Below, piece by piece: positions 17,105 to 31,976 of a stretch of 64,000 nucleotides of DNA. The number at the start of each line of letters is the position of its first letter. Position 1 is the first letter of the stretch. The translations under genes were made by a program, and so were the position numbers. Source of the stretch: Escherichia phage NHEP1; sequence record PQ511146.1. One strand, given 5' to 3'. The notes beneath the pieces were generated by a model, which saw only the letters and a list, made by a program, of their open reading frames with translations, did not search any database and had not been told where the DNA came from.

Positions 17105-17120
17105 TTTGCTGTCTCCTAAT

Positions 17121-17149
17121 GCAAAAAGCCCCACCCTTTCGGGCAGGGC
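17121..17149 (-). terminator. rho-independent terminator (same GAAA-loop hairpin as at 6014)
   Basis: GCCCUGCCC-GAAA-GGGUGGGGC + UUUUUG on minus strand downstream of gene 17156..17638. Confidence 0.55.
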
Positions 17150-17155
17150 ATAGTG

Positions 17156-17638
17156 TTAAACCCGGATACCTATTGTATACTCGGTGGATACCAATGTCAA
17201 ATCTAAATTTAAAATTTCTTGCATCTCATAGTATGCGTCCAGGGTGAGATACATTTCACCATCCTTTTCTACATACTTGTCAAGGTGTTTTAGGCACTTT
17301 GGATAGCTATCAAGGGCAGCCTTTAGGCACTCAAACTCCGTGCTGTTGATGAATCCTTCCATCTTGGCTACCCGTTCCGGAGTAACGATAGCACTGTAGT
17401 GAGATTTAGCTTCCTGAATGCAATGGGTCCAAGCATCAACTTTCTCTTCGAAAAGTCCGAAGAACTTCTTCTTGGTGAGCTTCAGATTCTTTAAGTGCTT
17501 AAGAACTCGGTTGCCGATTACAGACACATCACGAAACTTAAGGATCACTTTGTCAATATCCTCGCGGCCTATTTTCACAAAGCAGGCCTCACACATTTCA
17601 GGAGAGGCATAGCCTACTTTCCACATAAAATCTGACAT
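17156..17638 (-). CDS. hypothetical protein (160 aa)
   Basis: ATG start; operon context. Confidence 0.6.
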   Translation of the reverse strand: MSDFMWKVGYASPEMCEACFVKIGREDIDKVILKFRDVSVIGNRVLKHLKNLKLTKKKFFGLFEEKVDAWTHCIQEAKSHYSAIVTPERVAKMEGFINSTEFECLKAALDSYPKCLKHLDKYVEKDGEMYLTLDAYYEMQEILNLDLTLVSTEYTIGIRV

Positions 17639-17650
17639 AGCACTCCCTCC

Positions 17651-18049
17651 TTATTCCTGAAAAGCAACGATATCGTATGAGCTTGCAGACGAGCCGGGGG
17701 AAGAGTGACTCCAGTCTAGATCATCAGAGAAGTCAGCATACTGTGCACCACTCCGCAGTTTATATTTTACCCACTTACCTGGTGCAGGGTTTTCACCACC
17801 CTCCCATACTTCCCAACCTTCTGGCAAGCCGTTATCTTGGGAGTAACCATCAACTTCACTAGTGATCTCTGGGTTTGGCACCAAGATCCATGCAGGCTCT
17901 TCCTTCTTAGCAAGTGTCCACACAATGTATGTGTCTGAGCAGGAGCATGTCAGTAAAGTATACCCACTGTTCAGAACTTCTGCAAGCTCTTTTTCAGCAT
18001 CTTCTAATTTGGTTAGGTGGTATTGGATAATCTTCACATCTGTAATCAT
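17651..18049 (-). CDS. hypothetical protein (132 aa)
   Basis: ATG start; operon context. Confidence 0.6.
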   Translation of the reverse strand: MITDVKIIQYHLTKLEDAEKELAEVLNSGYTLLTCSCSDTYIVWTLAKKEEPAWILVPNPEITSEVDGYSQDNGLPEGWEVWEGGENPAPGKWVKYKLRSGAQYADFSDDLDWSHSSPGSSASSYDIVAFQE

Positions 18050-18351
18050 TAGAAGCCTCCTACTTCTTCAGCAAATGCTGCCGCTGTCGTCGCTGCATCC
18101 AGATAGGACTCTAGTTCACGTGCTGCACGTTTGTAAATCGAGTGGCGCAGATCGTTTGGTAACTGGTGAAAATCCACCTCTTCTCCGTTGTGGTAAACAT
18201 GCACATCAGTAATCTGTCTAAATCCATAATAATCAACATCAGAATCACGGCACTCCAGATCTGGCAACTGGACAACTGCCTGAGCCTCTACAGTGAGCAT
18301 ATCGTCAAGTTCGAAATCGATTTCAAAAGTGTATGGTTTATAACGCTTCAT
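18049..18351 (-). CDS. hypothetical protein (100 aa)
   Basis: ATG with AAGGAGAA SD. Confidence 0.55.
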   Translation of the reverse strand: MKRYKPYTFEIDFELDDMLTVEAQAVVQLPDLECRDSDVDYYGFRQITDVHVYHNGEEVDFHQLPNDLRHSIYKRAARELESYLDAATTAAAFAEEVGGF

Positions 18352-18410
18352 TATTCGGTGTTCTCCTTATCTTGTGTGAAGAGTAGACCTCTCCTTCGAT
18401 ATTTTAAATA

Positions 18411-19754
18411 TTACTCTAAATCTTCTTCTGAGTCAAGCTTATCTTTCACAGCTAAATTAGGGGCAAGTTTGTAATAGCGAAAGCCCCCACCGCCTTGCCA
18501 GTTTACAGATTTAGAAATACCACTTTGATCTTCACCATCGATCACTTTTTGCAAGCGTGGAATAATATGGGTATGACAATGATCTCCTAGCTCAACCGAG
18601 ATCCAACGTCTTTTCATCTTGTGAGCTACAGCAGCAGTAGTTCCAGAACCACCAAATGAATCCAATACTAAATCTCCTTCTCGCGTACACATTTCTAAAA
18701 TCCGCTTCAAAAGCGCTTCAGGTTTTTTTCCATTTTTGAAACTAACGCCCCCTTCATTTGCTATTCCATTCCAACTAATGTCAGTCCAAACATCAGTTAT
18801 TAGTTCAGCAGGCTGCATCTCACCGTCAATTTCCAAAAGCCTGTTGGAATAAAAGACCATTTGCCTACCATTTGCGATATAAAAGCCTTCGACATCCTCA
18901 TTTGGATGTACATAAACCTTATCCCTATCTTTCTTTGACTTCTCGATAGTTTCTTTTCTCTTTATTTTGGCACCACCGCCAATTGCAACGGATTGAAATA
19001 CACGTTCTGCATTATCAATTGCAAATTGTGCTAATTCATCATCAAATGTATCAGGCAGTTTTTTCTTGGCTTCTTTTGTATCTTTATAGCCATTGGCCTT
19101 TGCAAACGCATCGGCAATACCGCACCACGTCCAACTTTTATAATGGTCATCTGGGTTTAATAGATATTTGTTATATCCCGTATCATACTCTTTAGGTATA
19201 TAGATTTTGTTAAGTGGTTTCTTGGTACGATCTTTTGCATATACAAGCAAAAAGTTTGCTGTGGAGAAAACTGTAGTTCCTGTTGCCTTAAAGCCTGAAG
19301 GGCAATTTGTAGTCATCGATATGGTATTTAACTGATTTGCACGACCAAAAATCTCGTCCATCAAGACTTTTAAATAAGCCATTTCGCAGTCATCTAAGTG
19401 AACGAATATCACTCCATCATCGCTTAGCAGATTACGAATTATTTCTAATCTGTCCCGCATTAAGCCCAGCCAAAGGGAGTGCTCCAGGCTATCATCGTAG
19501 TGCTCAAAATCCCTTCCGGTATTGAATGGCGGGTCTATGTAAACACACTTCACTTTGCCTGCATACTCTTGCTCTAGTGCCTTCAATGCCAGTAAGTTAT
19601 CTCCAAAAATCAGTTTATTATCAAAAATATCGTTTTCGGTCACCTTTTTACTGGCGTGATAAGACTTGCTCGAATCTTCTAACAAAATGTGAGGCTCTAG
19701 CTTTTTGCGCTCGTTCTTACCTATCCAGGTAAGTTCTAATTTGGTTTTACTCAT
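18411..19754 (-). CDS. DNA N6-adenine/N4-cytosine methyltransferase (beta class)
   Basis: motif IV CVYIDPPF precedes motif I VLDSFGGSGTT; AAGGAGAG SD. Confidence 0.75.
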   Translation of the reverse strand: MSKTKLELTWIGKNERKKLEPHILLEDSSKSYHASKKVTENDIFDNKLIFGDNLLALKALEQEYAGKVKCVYIDPPFNTGRDFEHYDDSLEHSLWLGLMRDRLEIIRNLLSDDGVIFVHLDDCEMAYLKVLMDEIFGRANQLNTISMTTNCPSGFKATGTTVFSTANFLLVYAKDRTKKPLNKIYIPKEYDTGYNKYLLNPDDHYKSWTWCGIADAFAKANGYKDTKEAKKKLPDTFDDELAQFAIDNAERVFQSVAIGGGAKIKRKETIEKSKKDRDKVYVHPNEDVEGFYIANGRQMVFYSNRLLEIDGEMQPAELITDVWTDISWNGIANEGGVSFKNGKKPEALLKRILEMCTREGDLVLDSFGGSGTTAAVAHKMKRRWISVELGDHCHTHIIPRLQKVIDGEDQSGISKSVNWQGGGGFRYYKLAPNLAVKDKLDSEEDLE

Positions 19755-19780
19755 CGTTTGGTGCTCTCCTTAGTTTTTGT

Positions 19781-19798
19781 GGGGAGGAGTGCCTCCCC
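19781..19798. promoter_or_regulatory. GC hairpin GGGGAGG-AGUG-CCUCCCC in 5'UTR of methyltransferase gene
   Basis: 7-bp stem; T-run follows on the plus strand only. Confidence 0.3.
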
Positions 19799-19815
19799 TT
19801 TATACTCACATCTTA

Positions 19816-20157
19816 CTACTCAAGGTCTTCAGAGTCAAGCTCAAAAAGAATCAAACTGTGCATGCCTGCAGAGAGATCAACACACCCTGCAACAATAAGG
19901 GTTTGATAGTAAGGTTCAGCACCCTCAATATCTTCGTTAAAATCCACAACAAGGTAGTCACCTTTGTTAAAGGTGTATTTGTCCGATGTAAACGCAAAAC
20001 CTGCCCAGTCCCCTACTGCAGGATCTTTATCAGTCACCTTTGTTAGCAGTAGATCTTTTTCACGAGATCTTTTAGTAAAATCGTGAATCACAACATCCTT
20101 CTCTTCAGGAGTCGGATTGCCACACACGTAGTTAACGATATTTCTCCACAAACTCAT
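19816..20157 (-). CDS. hypothetical protein (113 aa)
   Basis: ATGA overlap with helicase gene. Confidence 0.55.
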   Translation of the reverse strand: MSLWRNIVNYVCGNPTPEEKDVVIHDFTKRSREKDLLLTKVTDKDPAVGDWAGFAFTSDKYTFNKGDYLVVDFNEDIEGAEPYYQTLIVAGCVDLSAGMHSLILFELDSEDLE

Positions 20158-21524
20158 ACGTCCCCCTTTTCTGCTCTAGTTTCAAAATCTTTCCTGACTT
20201 TCTCGTCTAAGCCAGGGAAAGTTGTATTATAAAACTCTACGACTCTCGGGTCAACAATAATATCCACCTCTCTTAATGGACGCAACAAGTTTATTCCTTG
20301 TATCGTCTTAACCCGACTCAAGGCAACATACGTCATTCCGGGAGAGAAAGCTCCGTTCTTTCCGAGGTCTAGGTTGTAACAATCTAACGTAAGTCCTTGA
20401 CTTTTATGCGATGTTACTGCGTACCCAGATTTCAAAGGAAGTTGCTCATAAGACCCGATCACAACCCTCTCTATGAACTTCTCCATCTTCCTTTCGGCAA
20501 TATTGTACCTCTGGGAAGGTTTGTACTCGTTATTCTCCCACAATCTCGGCTCAATTTCAACCTGTGTCCCGTCTTCCAGCTCAACCACCACAGACTTGGT
20601 CTTGAATTTTACCACTGTGGCGCGTGTCCCGTTGACATAGTACGGAACTTTATGTGTCGGGTCAACATCGTTTGAGGTTATCATAACCTTCATCCCTATC
20701 TTCAGCCTCATTTCCTGCTCCACAGGCAGTGTGGAGGGGAACTTACCTTTCATTTTACCAATGTAGGTCTTCTCTGGGGCCTTGATGGCATCATAGAAAC
20801 GTCTGTTCACCTCCTCTGCTTGCTTATTGGTGGCACAGATGGTCAAGGCATCTGTTGGGACACCACCATGATAGCAACGAGTGTTAAGCTCTGCTACAAC
20901 CTCTTTTATGCGACGACCTTCACGAACACAGTTCAACATTGTGGCGAAGCGAACAGATTCCTGACGGAACTGGTCTACTAATGCTATATTGTGAAGATTA
21001 AGATCCTCCCAAGATTTTGTATAGCAACACAGGTCTGTGTGGTAGAAGTTGAAGTAGGCTTCTTTCTCCATAGAAGAGACAACTGGGGGTGCTTGGTAGA
21101 AATCTCCAAACAATAGCACCTGAATGCCTCCGAAAGGTTTGTCATTTTTCCGAAGAAAGCGGAGTTTTCTATCCATCTCTATGAACTTGTCAGCACGGAT
21201 CATAGAGATTTCATCGATAATTAGGATGGTAAATGCCTTGCTTTTCAGAGGCTTTGCTGTTTTTGCCCTTATTGCTGTCCAGTCTGACTCCATGCTCACA
21301 CCTGCGGCAAGATCGAAAGTTCGGTGCGCTGTTGCTCCATTAACGTTTAAAGCGGCTACCCCTGTCGGGGCAACCGTTATGCAAGAGTCTCCATACATGG
21401 ACTGGATCATGTTGATAAGATATGTCTTCCCGGTTCCACCGGGTCCACTTACGAAGACATTCTCACCACTCATGATTGCAACAAGGGCAGCATCTGTGCC
21501 TACATCGTACTGCCCTTTTTCCAT
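20154..21524 (-). CDS. SF1B DNA helicase (Dda/RecD/Pif1-like)
   Basis: Walker A GPGGTGKT, Walker B IIDEISM, C-terminal TSHKSQGLTLD and YVALSRVK motifs. Confidence 0.85.
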   Translation of the reverse strand: MEKGQYDVGTDAALVAIMSGENVFVSGPGGTGKTYLINMIQSMYGDSCITVAPTGVAALNVNGATAHRTFDLAAGVSMESDWTAIRAKTAKPLKSKAFTILIIDEISMIRADKFIEMDRKLRFLRKNDKPFGGIQVLLFGDFYQAPPVVSSMEKEAYFNFYHTDLCCYTKSWEDLNLHNIALVDQFRQESVRFATMLNCVREGRRIKEVVAELNTRCYHGGVPTDALTICATNKQAEEVNRRFYDAIKAPEKTYIGKMKGKFPSTLPVEQEMRLKIGMKVMITSNDVDPTHKVPYYVNGTRATVVKFKTKSVVVELEDGTQVEIEPRLWENNEYKPSQRYNIAERKMEKFIERVVIGSYEQLPLKSGYAVTSHKSQGLTLDCYNLDLGKNGAFSPGMTYVALSRVKTIQGINLLRPLREVDIIVDPRVVEFYNTTFPGLDEKVRKDFETRAEKGDV

Positions 21525-22729
21525 TACGCCTCCTCGTAGATAATGTCGATAGTATTACCGTCGCGGTCAACCACGTACTCAATTGGGTCGCCATCTTTGC
21601 GTGATTCTGGAGCTACTACGATTTCGTAGCGGCATGCACGGCACTTGGCGCTGTTGTGTTGGTAAGGTACACTAACTACATCAGCAGGGTCAACCATGAC
21701 CGTCATCACAGTTCCGTAGCTCTTTGCATACTCTTTGCTGGCACAGTGCAGGCCATAAGAGCATGCAGCTTCCGGATCATCCTCTACAAAGTTACGGGGC
21801 ATGGATACAAAAGCTCCCTGGTATTGTGGGACTTTACCACTGTGCCAATCCACCCACTTGTCGCCGTTAAACTGAACCCCTTTGTAGCAAATGATTCGAC
21901 CATCTTCTGCAATCTGAATGTCGTTTGCCTGCATAAAATCGTAGAGCATGTTTACAGATTTTGCAGAAGGATTGCGTAGCAGGCGAACGAGGAATTTCAC
22001 ATAGCGGTCATCCAGTGTTCCGTCTGCATAATCTTTCTCAATTTTCTTTGCAATGGTGGATCGCATCTCTACACCGTAGTAGTAGAGCTTACCATCTTTC
22101 ATGATCAGGTTGTCTGCAAGTGTGGTGAACTCATTCTTGCGTTCCAGCCAGACAAGGATTTCACCAATTGCCTCGTCATATTCCTGAACAGAGATATGGT
22201 CGAAGACTTTCTGGTAAACTTCCTCACTTTCACTGCGGCGAATTTCAAAAATACCTTCGTTGCAGGTGATCTGGAGGAGTTCCCCGCAAATAACCACCAA
22301 AGGCTCGATGCTTCGGGTCTGTTGCTGAGACACACTGCTCACCACCTCCAGCACCGGGTCTTTTACTTCTACTAAAGGTTCTTCTGACTTGATTGCTACC
22401 CCAGTGAACCCTACACCGTGAACAACACACAGTGGATATACCACACCCCAACGTTTAACGGAACCTTCTCCTGAATCTAAGATCATGGCGTACTTACCGT
22501 TATCTTCCAGCCCATATCGAAATAAACGGGCCTCTTCACGGGTTTCAAAATCCTCACGGGTGTAGCAGACGCTGTCACGGTCAGGATCGAACAACTCTGG
22601 GGCACCTACTGCCAGTGTCCAGGTTGTGTTACCTTTCTCAATAGCGCATGTGAAACCCTTCTTCTCAAGCTCTGCACGGCGGTCACGTGCTTCTTTACGA
22701 GTTTTGAAATGTTCGTAGATGAAAATCAT
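21524..22729 (-). CDS. rIIB-like partner protein (putative) with tandem N-terminal repeats
   Basis: immediately follows the GHKL ATPase; ATG 5 nt after AGGAGA (track TTG at 22765); two about 45-aa repeats at N-terminus; assignment by synteny only. Confidence 0.4.
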   Translation of the reverse strand: MIFIYEHFKTRKEARDRRAELEKKGFTCAIEKGNTTWTLAVGAPELFDPDRDSVCYTREDFETREEARLFRYGLEDNGKYAMILDSGEGSVKRWGVVYPLCVVHGVGFTGVAIKSEEPLVEVKDPVLEVVSSVSQQQTRSIEPLVVICGELLQITCNEGIFEIRRSESEEVYQKVFDHISVQEYDEAIGEILVWLERKNEFTTLADNLIMKDGKLYYYGVEMRSTIAKKIEKDYADGTLDDRYVKFLVRLLRNPSAKSVNMLYDFMQANDIQIAEDGRIICYKGVQFNGDKWVDWHSGKVPQYQGAFVSMPRNFVEDDPEAACSYGLHCASKEYAKSYGTVMTVMVDPADVVSVPYQHNSAKCRACRYEIVVAPESRKDGDPIEYVVDRDGNTIDIIYEEA

Positions 22730-22739
22730 CTTGGTCTCC

Positions 22740-24722
22740 TTATTTGATGTTATTCTTTGTATCAATCAGTTCACGGTATTCAATCATAGCAGGAGTGTCC
22801 CAATATTTCAAGCCTACATGCTTCAAAAGTGGATATTTCTTTTCCAATCTTGCAATATAGGCCTTCCCGCACTTAACCCGGTTGGCGATTAAGATTTTGG
22901 CACGATGATTTAGCTCACCGTACTTCCACGTGGTGCTACCTTCCCACTTGTGGAAATGTGGCCGATAACTTCCAAAATCCTGCATGGGGATAATTTTACC
23001 TAACTGTCTGTACAGGCTGTCATATGAAGTTTCATTTGCTGCGCGAGTTAGTAAGAATTTCCAAGCATCCTCTTTCAACAAATGTTCCACATTCTTCTCT
23101 GTAACATATTGGCAATCAGGATCAGTCCAAAGCAGACGAGATTCCGACACCAGGTACAGATCTTCCCCTTCAGGAATCTGGAGTGCCGCACGCACACGGT
23201 CATAATCTTGCTGGTAGATGTTGCTCATCTGCCCTAGCCAACAACTTCCGCGTTGGATATCCCCCTCATACGGTATGCAGTGCTTAATCTTCCTGAACTC
23301 TGCCTTAGTAATACGCTCACGCCGGAAGTAACCATCCTTCTCAAGTTTTTTAACCCAATAGCCTGGTTCGTAACGGGTTTTGGTTTCACCTTTCTTCGTA
23401 GGTCGGCGTGGAAGCTCCGATAACAATTTGACCGTATCTGCAAAAAACGGATGGTGTGCCGCCTCTTTAAACTCTTTCACCAGATCCGTGTTACGGCAAT
23501 AGAAAACGTTGCGTCCGGTAATCTCGCTTAAGTAGTTACACTTATTCCGGTTATATTTGCCGTCTCCGTCGTTAAATACTAAATAAACTCCCCGTAAGAA
23601 TTCTACCTTTCCGTAGCAGGCGTAACCTATGCGGCCTTTATTTAAGCCGCCAGCGAAGATCTCGCAGTCCCCCAAATTTCCTAGCCCTGTTTCTTCCCAG
23701 CGGTCATACATAAAATTCTTACCGAAGATGTGCCCGAACACTCCACTGTTCTTCATCATCTCGCGTGCTTCTGAGGATGTTTTTGCTGTCTCCAGTTCTG
23801 CAACAACTTCTGCTCCACGAAGGCGAATGCCTTCTTTGACAAAAGCTTCCAAACGCTCTTGGAATCCACCATCGTCGTGACCTTCTATGGTCCATTCACG
23901 CCCTGGGTTAATATTGCAATCTCCGATAGGGATCTCTACACAAATTGCAGGATAATCTATTAGTGTCTCCAGGAACTTAGAACGGTAAGGTTGGTGACCC
24001 ATTACCACACGACTCTCGTCAGAGCTGGTATAACCCTTCAGGATGGTCATCTTCCAACCATCTTTTTCATAATAATACTGCGCCTCTACTTTGTCTCCCT
24101 CCAGCATCTTGCTCGTCATCGGGTCGGTGACAGTGAACGGAAATTTTGCATAGCGCAGGCATGATGCAATAGCGGTGCGATATTTCAGAACATGCTCTTT
24201 CTTAACATGAAACTGAACTTTTACCCCGTTGTGCTCTTCAGTCTTCCGCTCACGGATCTTGGTGACATTTGGGATACCCTGGTCCAAGAACAATAGGTAT
24301 GTGCTTTCCACACCGTTGTGCACACTGATTACATCGAAAGTGTCCACCATACTGAACGGGGCCTTTGAACCAACACCTTTATTGCCTACCAGAGCGTTGC
24401 TGTTGCGCTTGGTTGACTCTCCGAGGTTCATGAAGGTGTTGCGGACCATCTCTTCTGACATGCCTAATCCAACGTCCTGCACAAAGAAGTATGGTTCAAG
24501 GTCTGTAGGAGAGTGAATGATGATCGGAACATCACCCCGTCCAGACTCAACATGGGAGTCCACAGCATTGAAGATCGGTTCACGGCAGCTTGCCAGCACC
24601 TTATCTTCATAAATCCCTTTGATGATTAGCCCAAAAGTCTCTTTGTTCAGAGAAATTGATCCCCTGGTTACCTCCATATTCCCAGTTAGCACCGCTTTAG
24701 TTTCACTGCTGTTTACAATCAT
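22740..24722 (-). CDS. GHKL-family ATPase, rIIA-like
   Basis: Bergerat-fold motifs: N-box EPIFNAVDS, G1 VQDVGLGM, G2 NKGVGSKAP; 660 aa. Confidence 0.6.
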   Translation of the reverse strand: MIVNSSETKAVLTGNMEVTRGSISLNKETFGLIIKGIYEDKVLASCREPIFNAVDSHVESGRGDVPIIIHSPTDLEPYFFVQDVGLGMSEEMVRNTFMNLGESTKRNSNALVGNKGVGSKAPFSMVDTFDVISVHNGVESTYLLFLDQGIPNVTKIRERKTEEHNGVKVQFHVKKEHVLKYRTAIASCLRYAKFPFTVTDPMTSKMLEGDKVEAQYYYEKDGWKMTILKGYTSSDESRVVMGHQPYRSKFLETLIDYPAICVEIPIGDCNINPGREWTIEGHDDGGFQERLEAFVKEGIRLRGAEVVAELETAKTSSEAREMMKNSGVFGHIFGKNFMYDRWEETGLGNLGDCEIFAGGLNKGRIGYACYGKVEFLRGVYLVFNDGDGKYNRNKCNYLSEITGRNVFYCRNTDLVKEFKEAAHHPFFADTVKLLSELPRRPTKKGETKTRYEPGYWVKKLEKDGYFRRERITKAEFRKIKHCIPYEGDIQRGSCWLGQMSNIYQQDYDRVRAALQIPEGEDLYLVSESRLLWTDPDCQYVTEKNVEHLLKEDAWKFLLTRAANETSYDSLYRQLGKIIPMQDFGSYRPHFHKWEGSTTWKYGELNHRAKILIANRVKCGKAYIARLEKKYPLLKHVGLKYWDTPAMIEYRELIDTKNNIK

Positions 24723-25219
24723 TTATTGCGCTCCTTGTAGTAGATATGACTCCCGAATTGAGCTGTCCTCTGCATCTTTTTTGCCCATTTCGGTCGTACT
24801 TTTGTTGTATGGTAGTGTGTTGCTCCGCCTGTTATATCCATAGCCATGTATGCAACATGGTTGTTATTATAGACCTTTAGAAGCATCTTTGCAAGACTTT
24901 TAGCGTGATCCCATGAATCTTTTTCTGTCACCTTAAAAGTTTTGCCGTGGTTTGTCCACGAAAACTGGTTAGGTTGGTAGACAATCTTTCTTATAGTGTC
25001 TGGGTATTTGGGGTGAGATTTCCTGTTTAGTGTGGCAAACCCAGATGCCAGCATACCCATCGTGCCATCCCCTCTAGCCTCCCTGTAGATATTGCATGCC
25101 AGAATGTTTTCCTTAGTATCCGACGGCTTGCAGGTGTGATATACTTTTTGTTTTGGTGCTGCAACAACAGGCAGCGATAAAAATGCGCTCAAAATAATAG
25201 CAAAGATCTTAGTTTTCAC
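24719..25219 (-). CDS. secreted cell-wall hydrolase (SleB/CwlJ-like, Hydrolase_2 family)
   Basis: signal peptide MKTKIFAIILSAFLSLPVVAAP; NIYREARGDG...ATLNR...IVYQPNQFSW motif; GTG start after GGAG. Confidence 0.65.
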   Translation of the reverse strand: MKTKIFAIILSAFLSLPVVAAPKQKVYHTCKPSDTKENILACNIYREARGDGTMGMLASGFATLNRKSHPKYPDTIRKIVYQPNQFSWTNHGKTFKVTEKDSWDHAKSLAKMLLKVYNNNHVAYMAMDITGGATHYHTTKVRPKWAKKMQRTAQFGSHIYYKERNK

Positions 25220-25230
25220 AATAGCTCCAA

Positions 25231-25256
25231 ATAGAAAATCCCCGCCGAAGCGGGGT
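25231..25256 (-). terminator. rho-independent terminator (CCCCGC-UUCG-GCGGGG + U-run)
   Basis: 6-bp GC stem with UUCG loop followed by AUUUUCUAUUU on minus strand. Confidence 0.55.
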
Positions 25257-25268
25257 GTGTCTTAGAAA

Positions 25269-25649
25269 TTAATCGTAGTGTGCCAAAATCTCTCCATCGT
25301 TGCAAGTCCCCTCTACGAAGTTGTGAAGATTCATGCATTCATCTTGATAGAAGAATTTACCGCTTTTCAGCCGTAGACCAAACAACTCCGCATCTCCACG
25401 ATGGCAAGCCTCTACAAGTTCATAGATTTCATACGGTAACTCTCCATCGTCATGGAAGAACCCCGCTTTATCGTTGACATAGATGAAGAAATAGTCACTG
25501 CTGTCGCAAGCGTCCAGTATTTTAAACCAGATTTCATCCACATCTTTTTCTCGGATATCGATCACACAAGTGGAGCTGCATTCGTACTCCTTCTCCGGCT
25601 CCTCGGTCAATACCACCAAGTAGTTTCCCCGCTTACCTACTTTAGCCAT
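25269..25649 (-). CDS. hypothetical protein (126 aa)
   Basis: ATG start; operon context. Confidence 0.6.
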   Translation of the reverse strand: MAKVGKRGNYLVVLTEEPEKEYECSSTCVIDIREKDVDEIWFKILDACDSSDYFFIYVNDKAGFFHDDGELPYEIYELVEACHRGDAELFGLRLKSGKFFYQDECMNLHNFVEGTCNDGEILAHYD

Positions 25650-25658
25650 ACAACCTCC

Positions 25659-26843
25659 TCAAGCTTTAGCTAAAATGGCGCTAAACTCTTCACCAAACTC
25701 TTTTACAATCTTCATCAGGTTTGGGTATGCTTTGATCAGCTGAGCGACGATCTTGTCCCTGCCTTTACCAATAAGTAAGGCATTTCCTAAGGCGTTAGGT
25801 TTCATCATCGCCATAAAGACTGAGAATACAAAGTCTCGGTTCTCATCCTTGAAATTTTCCCAAAGGAAATCAAGGAAGTTTGCCACACAGCTGACAAGAT
25901 CTTCGTCGGAGATACTTGCATTTTCCATCATATTACGAATAGCGATACAACCTTCTGACCCCAGAATCCACAAGATGTCTGGCTGCTTAGGACCTACATA
26001 TTCTTTGCAGCCTCCTGCCATAATCCGACCGATTTCTGGCAAGTTTCGTTTCTTGGTGTGGTAGGTCCAAATTTCTACCGCTGCAGTGTGACCAATTGCA
26101 CCTTGTAGAAGGACACGGGCCATAGCGTCAGAAATAATACCGCTGTCAAAATCGTGCAGGATGTCAGATGCAGCAACCCAAGATCGCGGTGTGGCAAAAG
26201 ATGGACAATTAATCTCAGCCATGGCCTCATAATTATCAATGGCTGATGGGACTCTTTTCAGATATCCAATTACAGAGGAGTGCACCCCATTAAGGAATGC
26301 ATAGTCCTCAATAAACACCTCTGCACTGCTTGTAACTTCTACAATGATAAAGCGGTTAGCTAGAGGAGCTTCGAGCGCCGAAAGAACAGCACCGTCTGTA
26401 GCACGGTTACCTGCAGCTACAAAAACAGAGCCCTTAGGAAATGCATAGGTGCCGCACTTGTGGTCGAGCATAATTTGCATTGCAACCTTCTGCAGGTAGT
26501 TATCTGCATGAGTAAGCTCGTCTAGAAAGATAATTCCGCTCCAGTCCGGATCTGCAGGCCAAAATTCTGGAATTGCAAACACTGTACGTGTAGTCCCATC
26601 CGACTCTACAGGGATAGGTAGCCCAGATAAGTCAGCAGGGTCTTTATCTGACAGTCGCACGTCAACAAGGTTGTCATCTCGCTCACCGAACATATTATCA
26701 GCGATCTGCTTCATCACCTGACTTTTACCCACACCCATTGGTCCCAAAATTAGGACAGATCGGCTATGACGTTGGGCAAACTGAATAATGGCTGGCAACT
26801 CACGGACAGTGATTTGACCACTTTCGAATACGTTTCTTGACAT
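25659..26843 (-). CDS. MoxR-like AAA+ ATPase
   Basis: Walker A GPMGVGKS, Walker B IFLDELTHAD, sensor AAGNRATD; 394 aa. Confidence 0.8.
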   Translation of the reverse strand: MSRNVFESGQITVRELPAIIQFAQRHSRSVLILGPMGVGKSQVMKQIADNMFGERDDNLVDVRLSDKDPADLSGLPIPVESDGTTRTVFAIPEFWPADPDWSGIIFLDELTHADNYLQKVAMQIMLDHKCGTYAFPKGSVFVAAGNRATDGAVLSALEAPLANRFIIVEVTSSAEVFIEDYAFLNGVHSSVIGYLKRVPSAIDNYEAMAEINCPSFATPRSWVAASDILHDFDSGIISDAMARVLLQGAIGHTAAVEIWTYHTKKRNLPEIGRIMAGGCKEYVGPKQPDILWILGSEGCIAIRNMMENASISDEDLVSCVANFLDFLWENFKDENRDFVFSVFMAMMKPNALGNALLIGKGRDKIVAQLIKAYPNLMKIVKEFGEEFSAILAKA

Positions 26844-27112
26844 TAGTAAAAGTCCTCTACTTGTGTGTAAGTGTTTTCAAAGTTTTCCAAAACAGATGTC
26901 ACATCGGATCTGTCAATATCGTACACAACTTCCCAGTTGTATGCAACCCTTTCTGCTGTTGCTTCTTCGGGACTTAACCGCCTACTGGGGTGAAAGAATG
27001 TTGGAGTGCACTTTCTTAGCTGTTTCCCGATTTTCCCATAACAATACCTGTGGATAATTTTGTCAAAATTTAACTCTTTTTCTGCACAAAGTTCATGTTT
27101 CTGGTATAGCAT
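26843..27112 (-). CDS. hypothetical protein (89 aa)
   Basis: ATG after AAAAGAG; track GTG at 27145. Confidence 0.5.
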   Translation of the reverse strand: MLYQKHELCAEKELNFDKIIHRYCYGKIGKQLRKCTPTFFHPSRRLSPEEATAERVAYNWEVVYDIDRSDVTSVLENFENTYTQVEDFY

Positions 27113-27151
27113 GTTTATTACTCTTTTAAGTGGCCTCCTTGCCACTACCTG

Positions 27152-27532
27152 CTAGAATGCAGTTCGAATCCAAACAAGGTTTTTATCTGCCCAATCATAA
27201 AGGCAAGTCATTGCACTGTTGAATTGCTCGCATGGTGGATAATCCTCTTCCATTCGGCGCATACCAGAACCTTGAGGGAAAAGACTCATTGCTGCAAACC
27301 ACGAATCGTAGTCATCCACAGTGTCGAAGTAGTATACAACATCCTCCAATTCAGGGTCGAATTTTAAATTATCAGGATCCAGCAGCTCAGGAAACTTGGC
27401 ACGTAACTTGCCAGCTACGATACTTGCCAGCTCGCTAACATGCTTGTTGTCCCAATCTACCAGTTTCCCGTCTTCATCGATGCGTCCTAGCCACTGTTCA
27501 TGGAGATCAACTGTTGTCTTCCACTGTGCCAT
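27152..27532 (-). CDS. hypothetical acidic protein (126 aa)
   Basis: ATG start; operon context. Confidence 0.6.
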   Translation of the reverse strand: MAQWKTTVDLHEQWLGRIDEDGKLVDWDNKHVSELASIVAGKLRAKFPELLDPDNLKFDPELEDVVYYFDTVDDYDSWFAAMSLFPQGSGMRRMEEDYPPCEQFNSAMTCLYDWADKNLVWIRTAF

Positions 27533-27534
27533 TA

Positions 27535-27792
27535 TCAGTCTACCTCTTCTTCCCGTTGCAGCTCAAGATACCCATAGGTCTGGATATCTTCAAGGGTGTG
27601 AAACTCCCCGTCAGCAGCCAAGGCGCGAACAACTTGGCGCAAAACTTTATGAGGGACTTCATCCAGCCCTAGATTCAGTGCAGGAAACACCTTATCTAAG
27701 TCAACAAAATAAACGAACTGTAGTTCACCAGCTTCAAAAGGTGTATCTTCAATAAACATCTTCTCGGCATTGGTCAAGATCTGCACTTTCAT
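27535..27792 (-). CDS. hypothetical protein (85 aa)
   Basis: tightly packed, 1-nt overlap. Confidence 0.55.
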   Translation of the reverse strand: MKVQILTNAEKMFIEDTPFEAGELQFVYFVDLDKVFPALNLGLDEVPHKVLRQVVRALAADGEFHTLEDIQTYGYLELQREEEVD

Positions 27793-28148
27793 TATTCTAC
27801 CCCCTCTTCTTTTTCTTCAGCATTAGTTTCAGTGCTACCCCACTCTGGAGTTTCCACCTCGATAGTAAACTCACGCACTACACGGTAATTGCCCATGAAG
27901 CGCTCCACTTCTTCAAGGCTTATGGAGAGGCCATTGGCAACCAAGTCTGCAGCACCCTTCTCTACCAGGTAGTCCAGATTGGCTTCCAAGGCTTCAGGCT
28001 CAAACCCTGTCAATGCAATCATATAACCTTCCCCTTCATCAGGGAGGGCAATACAGCCCAACTGATTTTCTTTAAAAAAGCAGTGACCATCATTATTGAT
28101 TGGGTGCTCATTGCAGTAAATAGCTGCACGATAAGTAACTTTAGACAT
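27792..28148 (-). CDS. hypothetical protein (118 aa)
   Basis: operon context. Confidence 0.55.
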   Translation of the reverse strand: MSKVTYRAAIYCNEHPINNDGHCFFKENQLGCIALPDEGEGYMIALTGFEPEALEANLDYLVEKGAADLVANGLSISLEEVERFMGNYRVVREFTIEVETPEWGSTETNAEEKEEGVE

Positions 28149-28160
28149 TGATAGGCCTCC

Positions 28161-28439
28161 TTAGGCAACTGTCATTTTACATTCTTTGAATTTTAGCACA
28201 AGACGGTGATTGTGTCTAGTGTCTAAAAAGATTTTTTCAACCATCAGGCACACGGTGTAACCGTCCATCTTATTGACAACAAAATCTCCAGGGTAAGGGA
28301 GAATGTCACCTGGACTGGGGAAACATAGCCCACTCAAGAAGGCATCGTCGGTGGTGGATTTAATGGATTTCCACACACTGTCTGCCTGAATATTTTCACC
28401 CACATAATATACACTACCACATGCCTTCATCATAGTCAA
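28161..28439 (-). CDS. hypothetical protein (92 aa)
   Basis: ATGA overlap with upstream gene. Confidence 0.55.
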   Translation of the reverse strand: MTMMKACGSVYYVGENIQADSVWKSIKSTTDDAFLSGLCFPSPGDILPYPGDFVVNKMDGYTVCLMVEKIFLDTRHNHRLVLKFKECKMTVA

Positions 28440-29335
28440 ATCTCCGCGTAAATTAAACTGGAATCAGTATACTTCTTTAGTGGGTAAATATCCTGTCCAT
28501 AGATGCCGTCATTAAACACCTCATCTACCCAAAGGCTACACTTATATCCCATCATCTCTAAAACACCCATCTCTTCTTCGGTAAACTTATCACCGCTCTT
28601 GCAAGATGTCAATACCTCATTCTGTACTCTTGCCACCTCGAAGCGGTTATTGGCAATATCGCTATTAGCGATCAAATACTCACCCAAAGGGTGTGCGGCA
28701 TTAAAGATGCACAGTGGACGGTTGACGTAATAGTCTCCAGGTGTATAAAAATTATTGAGGTCTTTCACTAGAACATTCTTATCAGTCACTTCATTCATAA
28801 CATCATGCATATCGCACATCTTTATATGTTTGAGGATTCCATCCCCCATCACAAAATAAAAACTTGCTGAAACACTTTCGGCATAGATCTTACTAGATCC
28901 GTTGTAGTTGTATTTTACTCGGATGCTAACGGGGGTTTTTCCTGTCGCGTTAGCCATCATCCAAAGAAATGGCAGCTCATACTTCTCCTCTGAGGAAACA
29001 AAAGGTGAAGTTGCCAGAGATCGGAAACCTCCAGAGAAGTTGAAAGTTACAGAACCGCTCCGGCGGTATGATACTGCGTATTCCACTTTTATATCAACAT
29101 ATCCGTTGGAGTAAGTATGCCCTCCATTATCAAGGTATGTCCACTTATCGGACCCAGATACCAACCTCCGCTCAATTACCTTCATCACTACAGGGATTAG
29201 CGGATTAGTACAAACCGATTTTGAAGTAGCTTTATCATCCAAAGCCTCGTAAATTGCAGAAAGGATATCACCTGCTGAGAGATTGGTTGTGATATCTTGT
29301 TTCCACCTGGTGCTAAAACTGTTAAGATTTGCCAT
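28436..29335 (-). CDS. hypothetical protein (299 aa), first gene of the long minus-strand operon
   Basis: ATG with AGGAGC SD directly downstream of promoter 29376..29404. Confidence 0.65.
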   Translation of the reverse strand: MANLNSFSTRWKQDITTNLSAGDILSAIYEALDDKATSKSVCTNPLIPVVMKVIERRLVSGSDKWTYLDNGGHTYSNGYVDIKVEYAVSYRRSGSVTFNFSGGFRSLATSPFVSSEEKYELPFLWMMANATGKTPVSIRVKYNYNGSSKIYAESVSASFYFVMGDGILKHIKMCDMHDVMNEVTDKNVLVKDLNNFYTPGDYYVNRPLCIFNAAHPLGEYLIANSDIANNRFEVARVQNEVLTSCKSGDKFTEEEMGVLEMMGYKCSLWVDEVFNDGIYGQDIYPLKKYTDSSLIYAEI

Positions 29336-29375
29336 GAGTAAGTGCTCCTATGTTAGTTTTCTTTTGAATGGGTGC

Positions 29376-29404
29376 ACTATATCGTGGATTTAGAGTAAAG
29401 TCAA
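29376..29404 (-). promoter_or_regulatory. sigma70-like promoter (TTGACT-17-TATAGT), divergent partner
   Basis: hexamers seen in the intergenic strand-switch region. Confidence 0.55.
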
Positions 29405-29417
29405 CACGTTTTTCAGG

Positions 29418-29446
29418 TTGACATCTTCTCAGGCACTTGGTAAGAT
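29418..29446 (+). promoter_or_regulatory. sigma70-like promoter (TTGACA-17-TAAGAT), divergent partner
   Basis: the track TTG 'start' at 29418 is the -35 hexamer; real ATG is at 29478. Confidence 0.55.
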
Positions 29447-29477
29447 TTCTCCACCCACAGAGAACAAGAGACAACTC

Positions 29478-30467
29478 ATGAATCTTGAAAAATATTATAC
29501 ACCAGAAGAGTTAGAGCGCTTGCTCAAAAAATACAGACGCAAACAGAATAACGCACGGAAACGGGATATAGAGTTCAACCTGTCATGGGAAGAATATCTC
29601 CTATTTGGTAAAAAACTTTTAGGAGAGGGAGTATGCGACTATACCCTTATACCTTTCGACATGCACACAGATGAAAACGGACTGGGAAATCCTTTCTACC
29701 CATCTCTGGAGCGGATAGATGATGAAGGTCCTTATGCGGTTGACAATTGTTGTGTGGTGGGATTGAGATGCAACTCCCTAAAGGACTGCCTGGTAGATAA
29801 AAAGACCGCAGTCTTGATTAAAGACAAAACTGATCGAAAAATTGTCCAGCAGATGATGCTCCACCTGAGCGAAGAGCGTATGGAGAAATTGAAAGGTGAT
29901 TACACTTTTGAAGATTTCATCTTGCAATATGGAACGGAAGAGGATAAACTAGCACTCTTTGACGAAGAATGGGAGGAAGATATGTCACCGATGCAGGATT
30001 TTAAAAACTTCATGGCTAATCGTGGAGCCAACAAGCACATTTCTGACATTGTAAACGAGCCTGTAGTAGAGGAGATTGGAGAGATGACGCAACAGGCTTA
30101 CGAAGAGGAAAAAGAGCCTCAAGTGGTCGAAGAAGAGCTTACAGAAGAGGTTCCTGCACTGCCTGACGATGTTGAGATTGCCAAAGCTTACACTTTCTAT
30201 TGCCAGACGTTCTACGATGCAGGTATGAAAGTTGATCTGTCATTCAGCCAGTTTAAGAGCACATACATTCGAAAATGTTGTGCTTTAACTGGTGAACGTC
30301 TCGGTGCCGGACTTAAACCCCTATTAGTTACCGACTGGAACAAAGGTTTCACCAAAGGTAACTTCATGGTAGTATCTCCAATCATGGAGAAGGCTATGAC
30401 AGACCTTATGAAGACCACTCGCATGACAATGACCGAGTTGGCTGGTATTTTCAAGCACGTTAAATAA
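29478..30467 (+). CDS. hypothetical protein, possible HNH-like nuclease (330 aa)
   Basis: ATG 8 nt after AAGAG; F.LSWEEY...C.YT and SLERIDDEG...DNCCVVGLRCNSLK resemble HNH_3 / endonuclease VII-type motifs, with R in place of the catalytic H. Confidence 0.55.
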   Translation: MNLEKYYTPEELERLLKKYRRKQNNARKRDIEFNLSWEEYLLFGKKLLGEGVCDYTLIPFDMHTDENGLGNPFYPSLERIDDEGPYAVDNCCVVGLRCNSLKDCLVDKKTAVLIKDKTDRKIVQQMMLHLSEERMEKLKGDYTFEDFILQYGTEEDKLALFDEEWEEDMSPMQDFKNFMANRGANKHISDIVNEPVVEEIGEMTQQAYEEEKEPQVVEEELTEEVPALPDDVEIAKAYTFYCQTFYDAGMKVDLSFSQFKSTYIRKCCALTGERLGAGLKPLLVTDWNKGFTKGNFMVVSPIMEKAMTDLMKTTRMTMTELAGIFKHVK

Positions 30468-30471
30468 TGAC

Positions 30472-30488
30472 AGGGGCCATTGGCCCCT
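30472..30488 (+). promoter_or_regulatory. intergenic hairpin GGGGCC-ATT-GGCCCC (possible attenuator)
   Basis: near-copy of the bidirectional terminator stem at 36187 but without a clean U-run. Confidence 0.3.
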
Positions 30489-30500
30489 TCTGGAGTTTTA

Positions 30501-31961
30501 ATGGATAGCAGAAGTTCAGAAATCATTACCGCACAAAAAGATGATGCCTTGCGAATGCTGCAGGCCGCTCGCATGTACCTTCTTGAAAAGCTGCCGTTTT
30601 ATGGCACACTGTTGTCAGGGTTGCAGTTCGTAGAAAACCACACATGGTGCTCCACTATGGCAACAGACCATAAACGCATCTACTACAGCCCTGAGTTCAT
30701 TATGGGGTTGGCAGATGAGCGTAAAACCATTCTTAAAGCATCTCTGACTGACAAGCAGTTTGAGATGGCTGAAGTTTTCTATTCCCCAAAATCTGTGAAA
30801 GAGGTGGCCTTTCTTCTGTCACATGAGGTGGGGCATATTATCTGTGATCATCTGGTCCGTGGTAAAAGCTTTGAGCCGGAACTGTTCAATATTGCTTGTG
30901 ATCACGTTATCAACACAGGTCTTGTGGTTGACTTTAGCAAGCCTCCTTGTGTTTTCTTCCCGAAGGGGAAAAGCACTGAGTTCGTAAAAGGTAAGCCTTT
31001 TGGCTTCTTAGCTAATTGCTACTGCGACATGAAGTTTCATGGATGGATTGCGGAGAACGTCTATGCAGTTCTTGATAAACAAAGAGATCAGAATGGCGGT
31101 AAAAGTAAGAACGGTAAAGGTGAGAACTCCCAAGGAGATAAACGACAAACCGATGATCACATGAGCGGGAACGGTGGCACTAGTGATGATCTTGGAAAGG
31201 CTATGGGGTATGATCAGCCGCAACCAGTAATCAGTCAATCGGATAAAGATCAGGCCATGCAGGACTCTGGTGACATGTTGGAAGCAGCAATGCAAGCTTC
31301 AGGAGGTCGTTGCCCCGAGGCGGTGCGCGAGTTTGTCAAAAACAGAGGCAAGCCTGTAATCAATTATATAGATATTATTAAGCAACGTATGTTATCTAAA
31401 AGAAAGGCTGAGTTAACCTACAGAAAACCTGGTCGCCGATCTGGGTCTTTGACCACCACAATGCGAAAAGTTGGAGCTATAAACAAGAATCAACACGTTA
31501 TTGTTCCTGGTCGTAATCCGGAAAACACTATAGATATTGTAGTGGCTTTAGACGTTTCTGGGTCGATCTCACAAAGAACTTTAAAGAAAATGTTCAATGA
31601 GATCACCGGGTTGTGCAATTTGTATAAAGAGTTTAAGGTTACGATGTTCTGTTGGTCAACCGAGGTTGGAGAGGTTAAAGTATACACTCGCGGTAACATC
31701 GATGAGATGATCAACTATGAGGTCCACTCAACATGGGGCACAACAGCCGCCTGCGTGTTCGAGTATCTTGATGCTAACATACCGAATGCAAAAGATGTCA
31801 TCGTCCTTACCGACCTCTACTTTGAGCATAACTTTGAACAAAAGGCTGTTGACAACAAGTGGAAAAAGTACGATACTTTATGGGTTCTCACCGAAGGGTA
31901 TAATAAAAATTATATCCCGAGCTTTGGGAAAACTGTGGAATTAATCGAGTACGCTAAGTAA
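30501..31961 (+). CDS. DUF2201-type putative metallopeptidase + VWA domain protein
   Basis: N-terminal TMATDHKRIYYSPEF, HEVGHIICDH (HExxH) and NIACDHVIN; C-terminal VWA with MIDAS-like DVSGS; ATG after GGAG (track TTG at 30480). Confidence 0.8.
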   Translation: MDSRSSEIITAQKDDALRMLQAARMYLLEKLPFYGTLLSGLQFVENHTWCSTMATDHKRIYYSPEFIMGLADERKTILKASLTDKQFEMAEVFYSPKSVKEVAFLLSHEVGHIICDHLVRGKSFEPELFNIACDHVINTGLVVDFSKPPCVFFPKGKSTEFVKGKPFGFLANCYCDMKFHGWIAENVYAVLDKQRDQNGGKSKNGKGENSQGDKRQTDDHMSGNGGTSDDLGKAMGYDQPQPVISQSDKDQAMQDSGDMLEAAMQASGGRCPEAVREFVKNRGKPVINYIDIIKQRMLSKRKAELTYRKPGRRSGSLTTTMRKVGAINKNQHVIVPGRNPENTIDIVVALDVSGSISQRTLKKMFNEITGLCNLYKEFKVTMFCWSTEVGEVKVYTRGNIDEMINYEVHSTWGTTAACVFEYLDANIPNAKDVIVLTDLYFEHNFEQKAVDNKWKKYDTLWVLTEGYNKNYIPSFGKTVELIEYAK

Positions 31962-31976
31962 GAGAGGATGGTATTT

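Follow-up and report, generated by a model that had tools for sequence, protein, structure and literature searches.

A predicted Sec-exported SleB/Hydrolase_2-type cell wall hydrolase encoded next to rIIA in Escherichia phage NHEP1

Why do big virulent phages keep a secreted cell wall hydrolase beside a normal lysis system, apparently under tight control? The question is raised by a locus of Escherichia phage NHEP1 (PQ511146.1), which we analyzed within a window of 64,000 nucleotides (the whole stretch of DNA under analysis). The genes and signals considered are as follows.

24719..25219, minus strand: SleB/Hydrolase_2-type cell wall hydrolase coding sequence, 166-aa precursor, GTG start, TGA stop (open reading frame list and sequence)
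25225..25228, minus strand: Shine-Dalgarno GGAG, read from the sequence, 5 nt ahead of the hydrolase GTG start
25230..25255, minus strand: hairpin resembling an intrinsic terminator, CCCCGC-UUCG-GCGGGG plus AUUUUCUAUU, separating gp003 from the hydrolase gene and lying 5' of the latter
25269..25649, minus strand: gp003, acidic 126-aa protein upstream of the hairpin, matching PHROG 12370 only
24719..24722, minus strand: ATGA overlap of the hydrolase stop TGA (24719..24721) with the rIIA start ATG (24720..24722), from the sequence
22740..24722, minus strand: rIIA, 660 aa (PHROG 612, E 4.5e-123; Pfam HATPase_c_3, E 1.8e-8; rIIA in the annotation of relatives)
21524..22729, minus strand: rIIB, 401 aa from the annotated ATG (PHROG 609, E 1.6e-61; annotation of relatives)

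By its 98–99% identity to gp002 of rV5 and ECP26, the hydrolase gene is the ortholog of Escherichia phage rV5 gp002 (Vequintavirus), and its product also matched PHROG 938 (E 1.7e-27). The rV5 protein (YP_002003504) likewise has 166 aa, a GTG start, an upstream hairpin and an ATGA overlap with rIIA, behind which lies rIIB; the difference amounts to one residue, T3 against I3 in the n-region of the signal peptide, plus a few silent changes. Comparison with gp002 of rV5 and ECP26 gave 13 and 8 synonymous codon differences, respectively, and 1 non-synonymous, and the count of 13 to 1 against rV5 places the gene, at the codon level, under strong purifying selection. The hydrolase is already known: rV5-like coliphages have it annotated as 'cell wall hydrolase' gp002, and over 100 Vequintavirus-type genomes containing it have been deposited. 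The annotation is a routine, already-described one, and the signal peptide too has been published, SleB-like proteins having been described in all Vequintavirinae genera as signal-peptide-bearing and toxic on expression (PMC7344957). The original prediction had placed the upper boundary of the gene at 25256, which needs correction, as the coding sequence extends only to 25219, its GTG end, and the longer interval takes in the hairpin stem-loop at 25240..25255. Within the precursor, four segments bear on function.

25160..25219, minus strand (codons 1–20): predicted cleavable Sec signal peptide MKTKIFAIILSAFLSLPVVA, cleavage VVA/AP, by sequence rules
25094..25132, minus strand (codons 30–42): Cys30-Cys42 segment, predicted periplasmic disulfide beside the active-site helix, from cysteine covariation
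25064..25093, minus strand (codons 43–52): NIYREARGDG active-site motif with putative catalytic Glu47, from alignment A1 and the structure model
24956..24976, minus strand (codons 82–88): QPNQFSW, second conserved Hydrolase_2 motif, with Q85, F86, S87 and W88 invariant in alignment A1

The Pfam family Hydrolase_2 (PF07486) matched with 70.4 bits, where the gathering threshold is 27 (E 2.1e-19), over profile positions 2–100 of 100, and the motif initially proposed for the protein was borne out, with NIYREARGDG (43–52), LNR (64–66) and QPNQFSW (82–88) all present. Homologs were collected by an exhaustive HMMER search, used in place of a word-indexed search that had returned 10 matches. E47 was nearly invariant in alignment A1 (conserved at 90% or more), and the catalytic Glu and the QFSW motif were kept across genera at 33–52% identity. 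Glu47 aligned with the Glu of VYGE (Y-G-E) in Bacillus cereus SleB (4f55), and the SleB structure papers of 2012 reportedly identify the Y-x-E glutamate as the catalytic one. The AF2 model of the hydrolase (pLDDT 88.1) found 4f55, 4fet_B and 4fet_A as its top three Foldseek matches in the PDB (E 1e-5 to 7e-5, TM-target 0.75–0.79), with no other match below E 1 besides these SleB catalytic domains, and the modeled protein adopts the SleB catalytic fold. Bacillus SleB (4f55, 4fet) shares this fold and the Y-x-E ... QFS motifs but stands at only ~22–24% identity, and the phage protein is without its YpeB partner and without its N-terminal PG_binding_1: no second Pfam domain was found in the hydrolase, in which residues 1–20 form the leader and the catalytic domain begins at about residue 30. 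The SleB equivalog TIGR02869 scored 48.3 bits against a cut-off of 236.5, the match covering only model positions 83–201, its C-terminal, catalytic half. SleB is a lytic transglycosylase; SleB proper requires muramic-delta-lactam, which is absent from E. coli murein, and the substrate specificity of the phage enzyme must therefore differ.

The leader, judged by sequence rules and not by a trained predictor, combines a K2/K4 n-region, a 17-residue Gly-free hydrophobic core (IFAIILSAFLSLPVVAA, mean Kyte-Doolittle 2.5) and a cleavage region with small residues at -3/-1 and Pro at +2, whereas neither a lipobox nor a twin-arginine motif was present by the same rules. These features agree with the Sec signal peptide claimed at the outset. 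Comparable hydrophobic leaders are present in 130 of the 147 full-length top relatives and also occur in the orthologs of CR8, T5, muut, Mydovirus, Seunavirus and TH18. A Cys at -1 of the N-I-Y-x-E motif was accompanied by a partner Cys 8–19 residues upstream in all 34 family representatives that carry it, and the alternative Cys at -4 by a partner 25–45 residues downstream in 120 of 120; this family-wide co-variation points to a periplasmic disulfide. Because the predicted signal peptide, the SleB fold with its conserved Glu and the paired-cysteine covariation coincide, the product is very probably a peptidoglycan hydrolase that is exported by Sec and works from the periplasm.

How the gene might be expressed is suggested by its 5' region. 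The gene had been described as followed by a terminator; the hairpin lies instead 5' of the reading frame, after gp003, the orientation having been misread. Its stem-loop (25240..25255, minus strand), CCCCGCTTCGGCGGGG, is followed by ATTTTCTATT, and the RNA is predicted to fold at -18.9 kcal/mol (z -2.2), with the lower stem pairing the Shine-Dalgarno and GUG region. Terminator-like matches in the region were only about twice the shuffled expectation in the terminator scan (12 vs 6.8). Equivalent hairpins with a U-tract and different stem sequences were predicted in rV5, Mydovirus, TH18, Seunavirus, Certrevirus CR8 and PAK_P2; in the sister genera a GC hairpin with U-tract lies ~20 nt ahead of a GTG or TTG start, and such non-AUG starts occur in five lineages. 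An alignment of six 5' regions by MAFFT/RNAalifold misaligned the stems and yielded 3 pairs only, and each sequence was then folded separately. A TTTGGAG/TAGGAG element also precedes the ortholog start in Mydo-, Seuna- and Certrevirus and in TH18, and sequestration of the Shine-Dalgarno by the lower stem, found in Vequintavirus and Certrevirus only, is not claimed as general. The recurrence of the hairpin and U-tract before GTG/TTG starts in sister genera suggests that expression is deliberately low. A literature search found no transcriptome of any Vequintavirus.

On the downstream side, the proposed coupling to a GHKL ATPase stood as far as the ATGA stop/start overlap is concerned, which is annotated likewise in rV5 and ECP26, but the PHROG 612 match identifies the ATPase as rIIA. 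A TTGCAA-17-TATAAT site at 24866..24894, inside the hydrolase gene, is a candidate promoter for rIIA. The rIIA/rIIB pair follows the hydrolase in Vequinta-, Seuna- and Mydovirus and probably in TH18, and a small membrane protein is encoded downstream in Seuna-, Mydo- and Certrevirus; both features make for a lysis-related neighborhood. In Vequintavirus, where the neighbors are gp003 and rIIA, no membrane protein adjoins the hydrolase, in accordance with the earlier remark that no holin is adjacent. The small membrane proteins of Seunavirus and CR8 had no homolog anywhere in rV5 and no detectable relatedness to each other. The single-sequence structure model of rIIB (pLDDT 37) was unusable. As for gp003, its tblastn matches comprised 115 records, all of Vequintavirus type, marking it as Vequintavirus-specific. 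A conserved gp003-hydrolase module, prompted by rV5 Table S3, where gp3 is given as similar to T5.083, was rejected; gp003 had no BLASTP match to the gene that precedes the hydrolase gene in T5, and the entry in the table was probably shifted by a row and belongs to gp2.

Orthologs in other phages extend this picture. Pectobacterium CB7_83, Cronobacter CR3_087 and CR8 gp090 are alike in signal peptide, C-x11-C pair, catalytic motif and position upstream of a helicase block, but differ in their ~46% identity, their ATG start and a two-TMD membrane protein downstream instead of rIIA/rIIB. T5p081 of T5 ('cell wall hydrolase homolog') and gp154 of PAK_P2 (Pakpunavirus) are small Hydrolase_2 proteins with N-terminal leaders, likewise situated among early or nucleotide-metabolism genes; they differ in their 35–40% identity, the alternative cysteine pairing and the lack of rII neighbors, and the N-terminal anchor of PAK_P2 gp154 looks uncleaved. 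T5 has a known endolysin of another kind, an L-alanyl-D-glutamate peptidase. The literature search turned up no experimental work on Hydrolase_2 proteins of phages that infect Gram-negative hosts.

Besides the hydrolase, no endolysin, holin candidate or spanin was found in the 64-kb window. Among the closest relatives, phage S127 BCL3, which is 99.1% identical over window positions 22000–27000, and rV5 both carry a lambda-R-like (GH104) endolysin together with Rz/Rz1 spanins next to the terminase, and rV5 has a separate two-TMD holin candidate. These assignments were made by PHROGs, a Pfam search of the GH104 endolysin, its neighbor and the spanins having returned nothing. As the rest of the NHEP1 genome lies outside the window, a GH104 endolysin in this phage is predicted from its relatives. 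The original prediction had offered an exported endolysin or a secreted enzyme working on the wall from the periplasm; its periplasmic part is supported. The role of main endolysin is not, since separate lysis genes, named there as grounds for refutation, occur in S127 BCL3 and rV5. The type of endolysin varies while the SleB-like gene is kept: GH104 in the relatives considered here, GH24 in Phapecoctavirus and M15 in CB7 and Septuagintavirus. LNA4 encodes a class I chitinase-domain endolysin alongside a PF07486 protein. Both the GH104 gene and the hydrolase gene lie in non-late units, and genome position therefore does not separate their roles.

We favor, at about even odds (roughly 0.5), a reading in which the hydrolase is an accessory, pre-positioned, Sec-exported muralytic enzyme that weakens the wall and assists the canonical lysis set without replacing it, because a GH104 endolysin and Rz/Rz1 are encoded at other sites in the S127 BCL3 and rV5 genomes. 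The precursor would be made in the cytoplasm from a long leftward early/middle transcription unit that also covers replication genes and rIIA/rIIB, and would probably be scarce, since read-through of the strong hairpin terminator before the ribosome-binding site would be needed and the start is GUG. Sec would export it, signal peptidase I would cut after Ala20, and the Cys30-Cys42 disulfide would form in the periplasm beside catalytic Glu47. The mature enzyme, predicted to be small and basic (~146 aa beginning with A21, ~16.9 kDa, pI ~10), could then cleave glycan strands of the sacculus without need of a holin, next to the canonical set, which in the relatives' genomes would consist of a cytoplasmic lambda-R-type GH104 endolysin, a holin and Rz/Rz1.

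Holin-independent export of a muralytic enzyme before lysis is known from fOg44 Lys44, P1 Lyz and phage 21 R21. The NHEP1 protein would likewise be exported without a holin, here as predicted from sequence, but these Sec-exported and SAR endolysins belong to unrelated catalytic families. SAR domains are weakly hydrophobic, rich in Gly, Ala and Ser and devoid of a cleavage site, unlike the NHEP1 leader, whose core is strongly hydrophobic with 0 Gly and is followed by an A-x-A-type site with small residues at -3/-1. A canonical cytoplasmic endolysin is also a poor match, given the secretion leader, the lack of clustering with a holin or spanin and, in relatives, a second muralytic gene. What the leader does resemble, by sequence rules and with support from the cysteine covariation, is the cleavable type I signal peptide of Lys44-type endolysins, and the hydrolase could accordingly be imagined as the principal endolysin, exported early and activated once a holin or pinholin has dissipated the membrane potential, like Lys44 of the Oenococcus phage fOg44. 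The 'endolysin' label in PHROG 938 and many records, the association of the CR3 and CB7 orthologs with lysis and, in Certrevirus, a downstream class II holin candidate speak for it. We nevertheless consider it improbable: the closest relatives have retained a lambda-R-like endolysin that is intact and highly conserved, with rV5 gp085 matched at 95% identity or more in at least 80 phage records, Vequintavirus has no adjacent membrane protein, and the rV5 authors designated gp89 as the lysin without placing ORF2 among their lysis genes. A role as a virion-associated lysin piercing the wall at infection, for which one could cite the Hydrolase_2 domain that forms part of ~1100-aa internal proteins in the virions of Rhizobium and Agrobacterium podophages, is very improbable indeed, as the hydrolase is free-standing, with 166 aa and a leader for secretion, its gene lies ~11 kb from the tail genes, gp002 peptides are missing from the rV5 virion mass spectrometry table S5 in which a control peptide was found, and the PA5oct homolog is absent from virions.

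The misfit between the muramic-delta-lactam specificity of SleB and E. coli murein, together with a score far under the equivalog cut-off, would also accommodate a protein that is catalytically dead or irrelevant on this murein, that is, a peptidoglycan-binding or relic protein carried with the rII genes. Strong purifying selection and the retention of the catalytic Glu and QFSW across genera make this quite unlikely, as does the CB7 ortholog, reported as toxic when expressed in E. coli (data not shown; PMC7344957). An active enzyme with a periplasmic job other than lysis deserves more weight, although we still rate it as unlikely; this job could be latent-period remodeling or thinning of the sacculus, superinfection interference, or conditioning of the envelope with the rII proteins. 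The gene belongs to the core of the Vequintavirinae genera, Stephanstirmvirinae, T5-like phages and Pakpunavirus whichever endolysin they use, always in early, replication or nucleotide-metabolism neighborhoods, and is coupled here to rIIA; the muut and phiWec190 copies come with a sigma70-like promoter of their own (TTGCAA-17-TACAAT/TATACT), which suggests early expression by host RNA polymerase. Against such a job, no function of this kind is known for any Hydrolase_2 protein, and in Seuna-, Mydo- and Certrevirus the gene is followed by a holin-like small membrane protein, an arrangement that resembles a lysis pair.

A broader proposition can be put forward tentatively, as a possibility somewhat removed from likelihood: a conserved early/middle core gene of these four groups, unrelated lineages of large virulent phages infecting Gram-negative hosts, whatever endolysin each uses, would have its expression held low by a terminator before the ribosome-binding site and by non-AUG starts, and would serve a distinct envelope job, either as a membrane-potential-gated second lysin with rII or small membrane proteins or in latent-period conditioning of the sacculus. 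For lysin mining, the 'endolysin' label in many records is probably misleading, because the relatives carry a separate lambda-type endolysin. Several records also have wrong starts, by which the signal peptide is removed or buried.

The SleB/Hydrolase_2-type hydrolase is a real, ordinary and previously described finding, and its locus is organized as follows.

24719..25219, minus strand: hydrolase ORF, 166 aa, with a GTG start five bases past GGAG
24719..24722, minus strand: ATGA overlap of the hydrolase stop with the next gene's ATG
25240..25255, minus strand: terminator-like hairpin CCCCGC-UUCG-GCGGGG, then AUUUUCUAUU, in the gap that separates the hydrolase start from gp003, the gene upstream

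The 5-kb stretch around the hydrolase matched 121 phage records by megablast, with Escherichia phage S127 BCL3 as the best match (99.1%) and rV5-like coliphages (genus Vequintavirus) making up most of the others. Local alignment of the window with rV5 115157..137947 and then 1..40974 placed the hydrolase at rV5 1980..2480, which corresponds to gp002, annotated as 'cell wall hydrolase'. Thirteen codon differences from rV5 were synonymous and one was non-synonymous, indicating a constrained gene. The motifs quoted in the original prediction were found (NIYREARGDG, residues 43-52; LNR, residues 64-66; QPNQFSW, residues 82-88), and the ATGA stop/start overlap agrees with the translational coupling claimed there. 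The neighbor reported as a GHKL ATPase is also in place, not as a generic member but as rIIA (PHROG 612, E 4.5e-123), followed by rIIB. The terminator had been said to follow the gene; the hairpin instead comes after gp003 and precedes the hydrolase, making it a terminator-like site before this gene, and the upper coordinate of 25256 had taken it in.

The protein exceeded the Pfam Hydrolase_2 threshold of 27 bits with a score of 70.4, and PHROG 938 was matched at E 1.7e-27; the family is very large, and an exhaustive HMMER search with a limit of E < 1e-3 recovered 27,900 cluster representatives. For an AlphaFold2 model built from 11 sequences (mean pLDDT 88), the only significant matches among solved structures were the Bacillus SleB catalytic domains 4f55 and 4fet (TM-score 0.75-0.79 on target), which were recovered again in a PDB sequence search with Glu47 aligned to the SleB Y-G-E glutamate. 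SleB proper was ruled out by a score of 48 bits where the equivalog cut-off is 236.5, and the hydrolase also lacks its N-terminal peptidoglycan-binding domain. The substrate of SleB is muramic-delta-lactam cortex, whereas muramic-delta-lactam is absent from E. coli.

The predicted signal peptide proved to be of the classic type: residues 1-20 (MKTKIFAIILSAFLSLPVVA) comprise two lysines and a 17-residue Gly-free hydrophobic core, ending in a V-V-A|A-P site. Sequence inspection of the leader revealed neither a lipobox nor a twin arginine, and no other hydrophobic stretch occurs beyond these residues. On these features, the leader is a cleavable type I signal peptide and not a Gly/Ala-rich SAR anchor. 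A comparable leader was present in 130 of 147 full-length top relatives, as well as in Certrevirus, Mydovirus, Seunavirus, TH18, phi92-like and T5 orthologues. Additionally, where a Cys directly precedes N-I-Y-x-E (cf. Cys42), a second Cys was found 8-19 residues upstream (cf. Cys30) in 34/34 representatives, and where the Cys instead lies four residues before the motif, a partner occurs 25-45 residues downstream in 120/120. Such strict pairing suggests disulfides and hence an extracytoplasmic protein, which gives independent support for export.

We favor, with a probability of about 0.5 for the mechanism as a whole, a hydrolase that would be made at low level with rIIA/rIIB in a leftward early/middle unit, exported by Sec, processed by signal peptidase and stabilized by a disulfide in the periplasm. 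There, the SleB-fold protein would act as a muralytic enzyme, probably a lytic transglycosylase, and would weaken the wall as an accessory to a canonical endolysin/holin/spanin system. That it is exported and muralytic is, taken by itself, very probable. SleB-like homologues are present in all Vequintavirinae genera and bear a signal peptide, and expression of the CB7 protein in E. coli was toxic, as reported with data not shown (Buttimer et al. 2020, PMC7344957). The remaining papers list the domain only, and no functional study was found in the literature.

The original prediction had raised the idea of an exported endolysin, and comparison with rV5 revealed no relative of the rV5 lysin, spanins or proposed holin in the window. 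Among the relatives, a canonical lysis set lies separate from the hydrolase: rV5 encodes a lambda-R-like lysozyme, gp085, with Rz/Rz1 adjoining the terminase, and S127 BCL3 carries rV5's GH104 gene (PHROG 90, E 5e-55) and spanins. This argues against the hydrolase being the principal endolysin, which we consider very unlikely. The rV5 lysin recurs at 95% identity or more in at least 80 phage records; in the rV5 paper, gp89 is called 'the obvious lysin', the holin candidate is a different protein with two TMDs, and ORF2 is absent from the section on lysis. Endolysin type varies among related genera: rV5 and S127 BCL3 have GH104, Phapecoctavirus has GH24, and CB7 and Septuagintavirus have M15 peptidases. 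The SleB-like gene is kept alongside each of these types, and in LNA4, too, a PF07486 protein accompanies an endolysin with a class I chitinase domain. The hydrolase was not detected in the rV5 virion protein table, nor was its PA5oct homologue identified as a virion component. A periplasmic role other than lysis would likewise suit an exported protein kept beside a separate endolysin; we regard it as rather doubtful.

Directly after the GH104 endolysin, rV5 gp086 (68 aa; 22109..22315 in rV5, 15773..15979 in L005, a further record with this endolysin gene) carries the annotation note 'contains transmembrane domain'. It consists of one N-terminal leader (MKDFLLAILFMAACLACGVVFAG) followed by a tail that is soluble, and by sequence looks secreted or lipid-anchored, not of the two-TMD holin type.

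GC-rich hairpins with a U-tract approximately 20 nt before the start codon recur in Vequintavirus, Mydovirus, TH18, Seunavirus, Certrevirus and PAK_P2, with stems unrelated in sequence and predicted energies of -14 to -22 kcal/mol. The hydrolase starts with GTG in Vequintavirus and with TTG in Mydovirus, Seunavirus, TH18, muut and phiWec190. In Vequintavirus and CR8, the lower stem is predicted to pair the Shine-Dalgarno region too, which was not seen in the remaining lineages with the hairpin. From these predicted structures, we infer that the layout may hold a potentially lethal secreted enzyme at low level. New here are the recurrent terminator and weak-start layout, the corrected terminator orientation, the identification of the neighbor as rIIA and the cysteine-pair evidence for export. 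In the phi92-like muut (2914..2950) and phiWec190 (2402..2432), the terminator hairpin is followed by a promoter-like TTGCAA-17-TACAAT or TATACT and then by the hydrolase. Within the muut promoter spacer, GCCUCUU is a predicted pairing partner of the Shine-Dalgarno AGGAGGC (z -4.2), so that the ribosome-binding site would be masked in read-through and open in promoter-initiated transcripts. Within the hydrolase ORF of the window, a sigma70-like site TTGCAA-17-TATAAT (24866..24894, minus strand; 10/12 matches) lies 144 nt upstream of the rIIA ATG, with both hexamers the same in rV5 and ECP26; it could yield an rIIA/rIIB transcript without the hydrolase or reflect mere coding constraint.

The gene order in Seunavirus and Mydovirus is hydrolase, small membrane protein, rIIA and rIIB, and TH18 has an unannotated ORF of roughly 2 kb after the hydrolase, at rIIA's usual place. 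Certrevirus lacks rII, and the gene after the hydrolase encodes a two-TMD membrane protein; a holin candidate downstream of the SleB-like gene has been proposed there (PMC7344957). Phi92-like phages carry the gene by itself, with a sigma70-like promoter; in T5 and PAK_P2 its surroundings are early or nucleotide-metabolism genes, and in Rhizobium and Agrobacterium podophages the Hydrolase_2 domain lies within a large internal virion protein. In the Mydovirus VLCpiM5b, an unannotated 51-aa ORF between hydrolase and rIIA (3036..3191, plus strand) resembles in sequence (common W-E-Q-x-x-G-A-Y) and position the 57-aa small membrane protein of the Seunavirus SG_WM_SEW_6S (4033..4206, plus strand), which resembles a holin and whose C-terminal tail is basic; neither rV5 nor the window has a counterpart. 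The annotated hydrolase starts in both phages (VLCpiM5b 2501..3031; SG_WM_SEW_6S 3456..4028) appear to be misassigned: the signal peptide is lost from the Mydovirus CDS (2648..3031, 127 aa), and the Seunavirus CDS (190 aa, TTG) extends back across the upstream hairpin. A TTG start gives MKLKNLIL.../MKIKAIIL..., in line with the Vequintavirus N-terminus.

The rIIB of the window (21524..22729, minus strand) has an N-terminal extension of ~100 aa beyond the RIIB PHROG match. SPOR domains bind glycan strands, and the isolated N-terminus gave a marginal Pfam SPOR match (22.2 bits versus a gathering score of 21), with a second similar repeat apparently present, a curious feature beside a wall hydrolase. 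RIIB itself is without an export signal, and the structure predicted from its sequence alone was too poor to use (pLDDT 37).

Among the search matches, 16 to 23 records are titled 'Campylobacter phage' with C. jejuni as stated host. In MG065635, MG065646, MG065659, MG065666, MG065672, MG065674 and MG065690, protein identity to rV5-like coliphages in the gp003 region is 98-100%, and the host attribution looks doubtful. In the gene 2 and gene 3 rows of Additional file 3 (Table S3) of the rV5 paper, the homologue 'T5.083, 6e-22' stands on the gp3 row. No T5 relative of gp3 was detectable, gp2 does match the T5 cell wall hydrolase homologue, and the entry is probably a shifted row.
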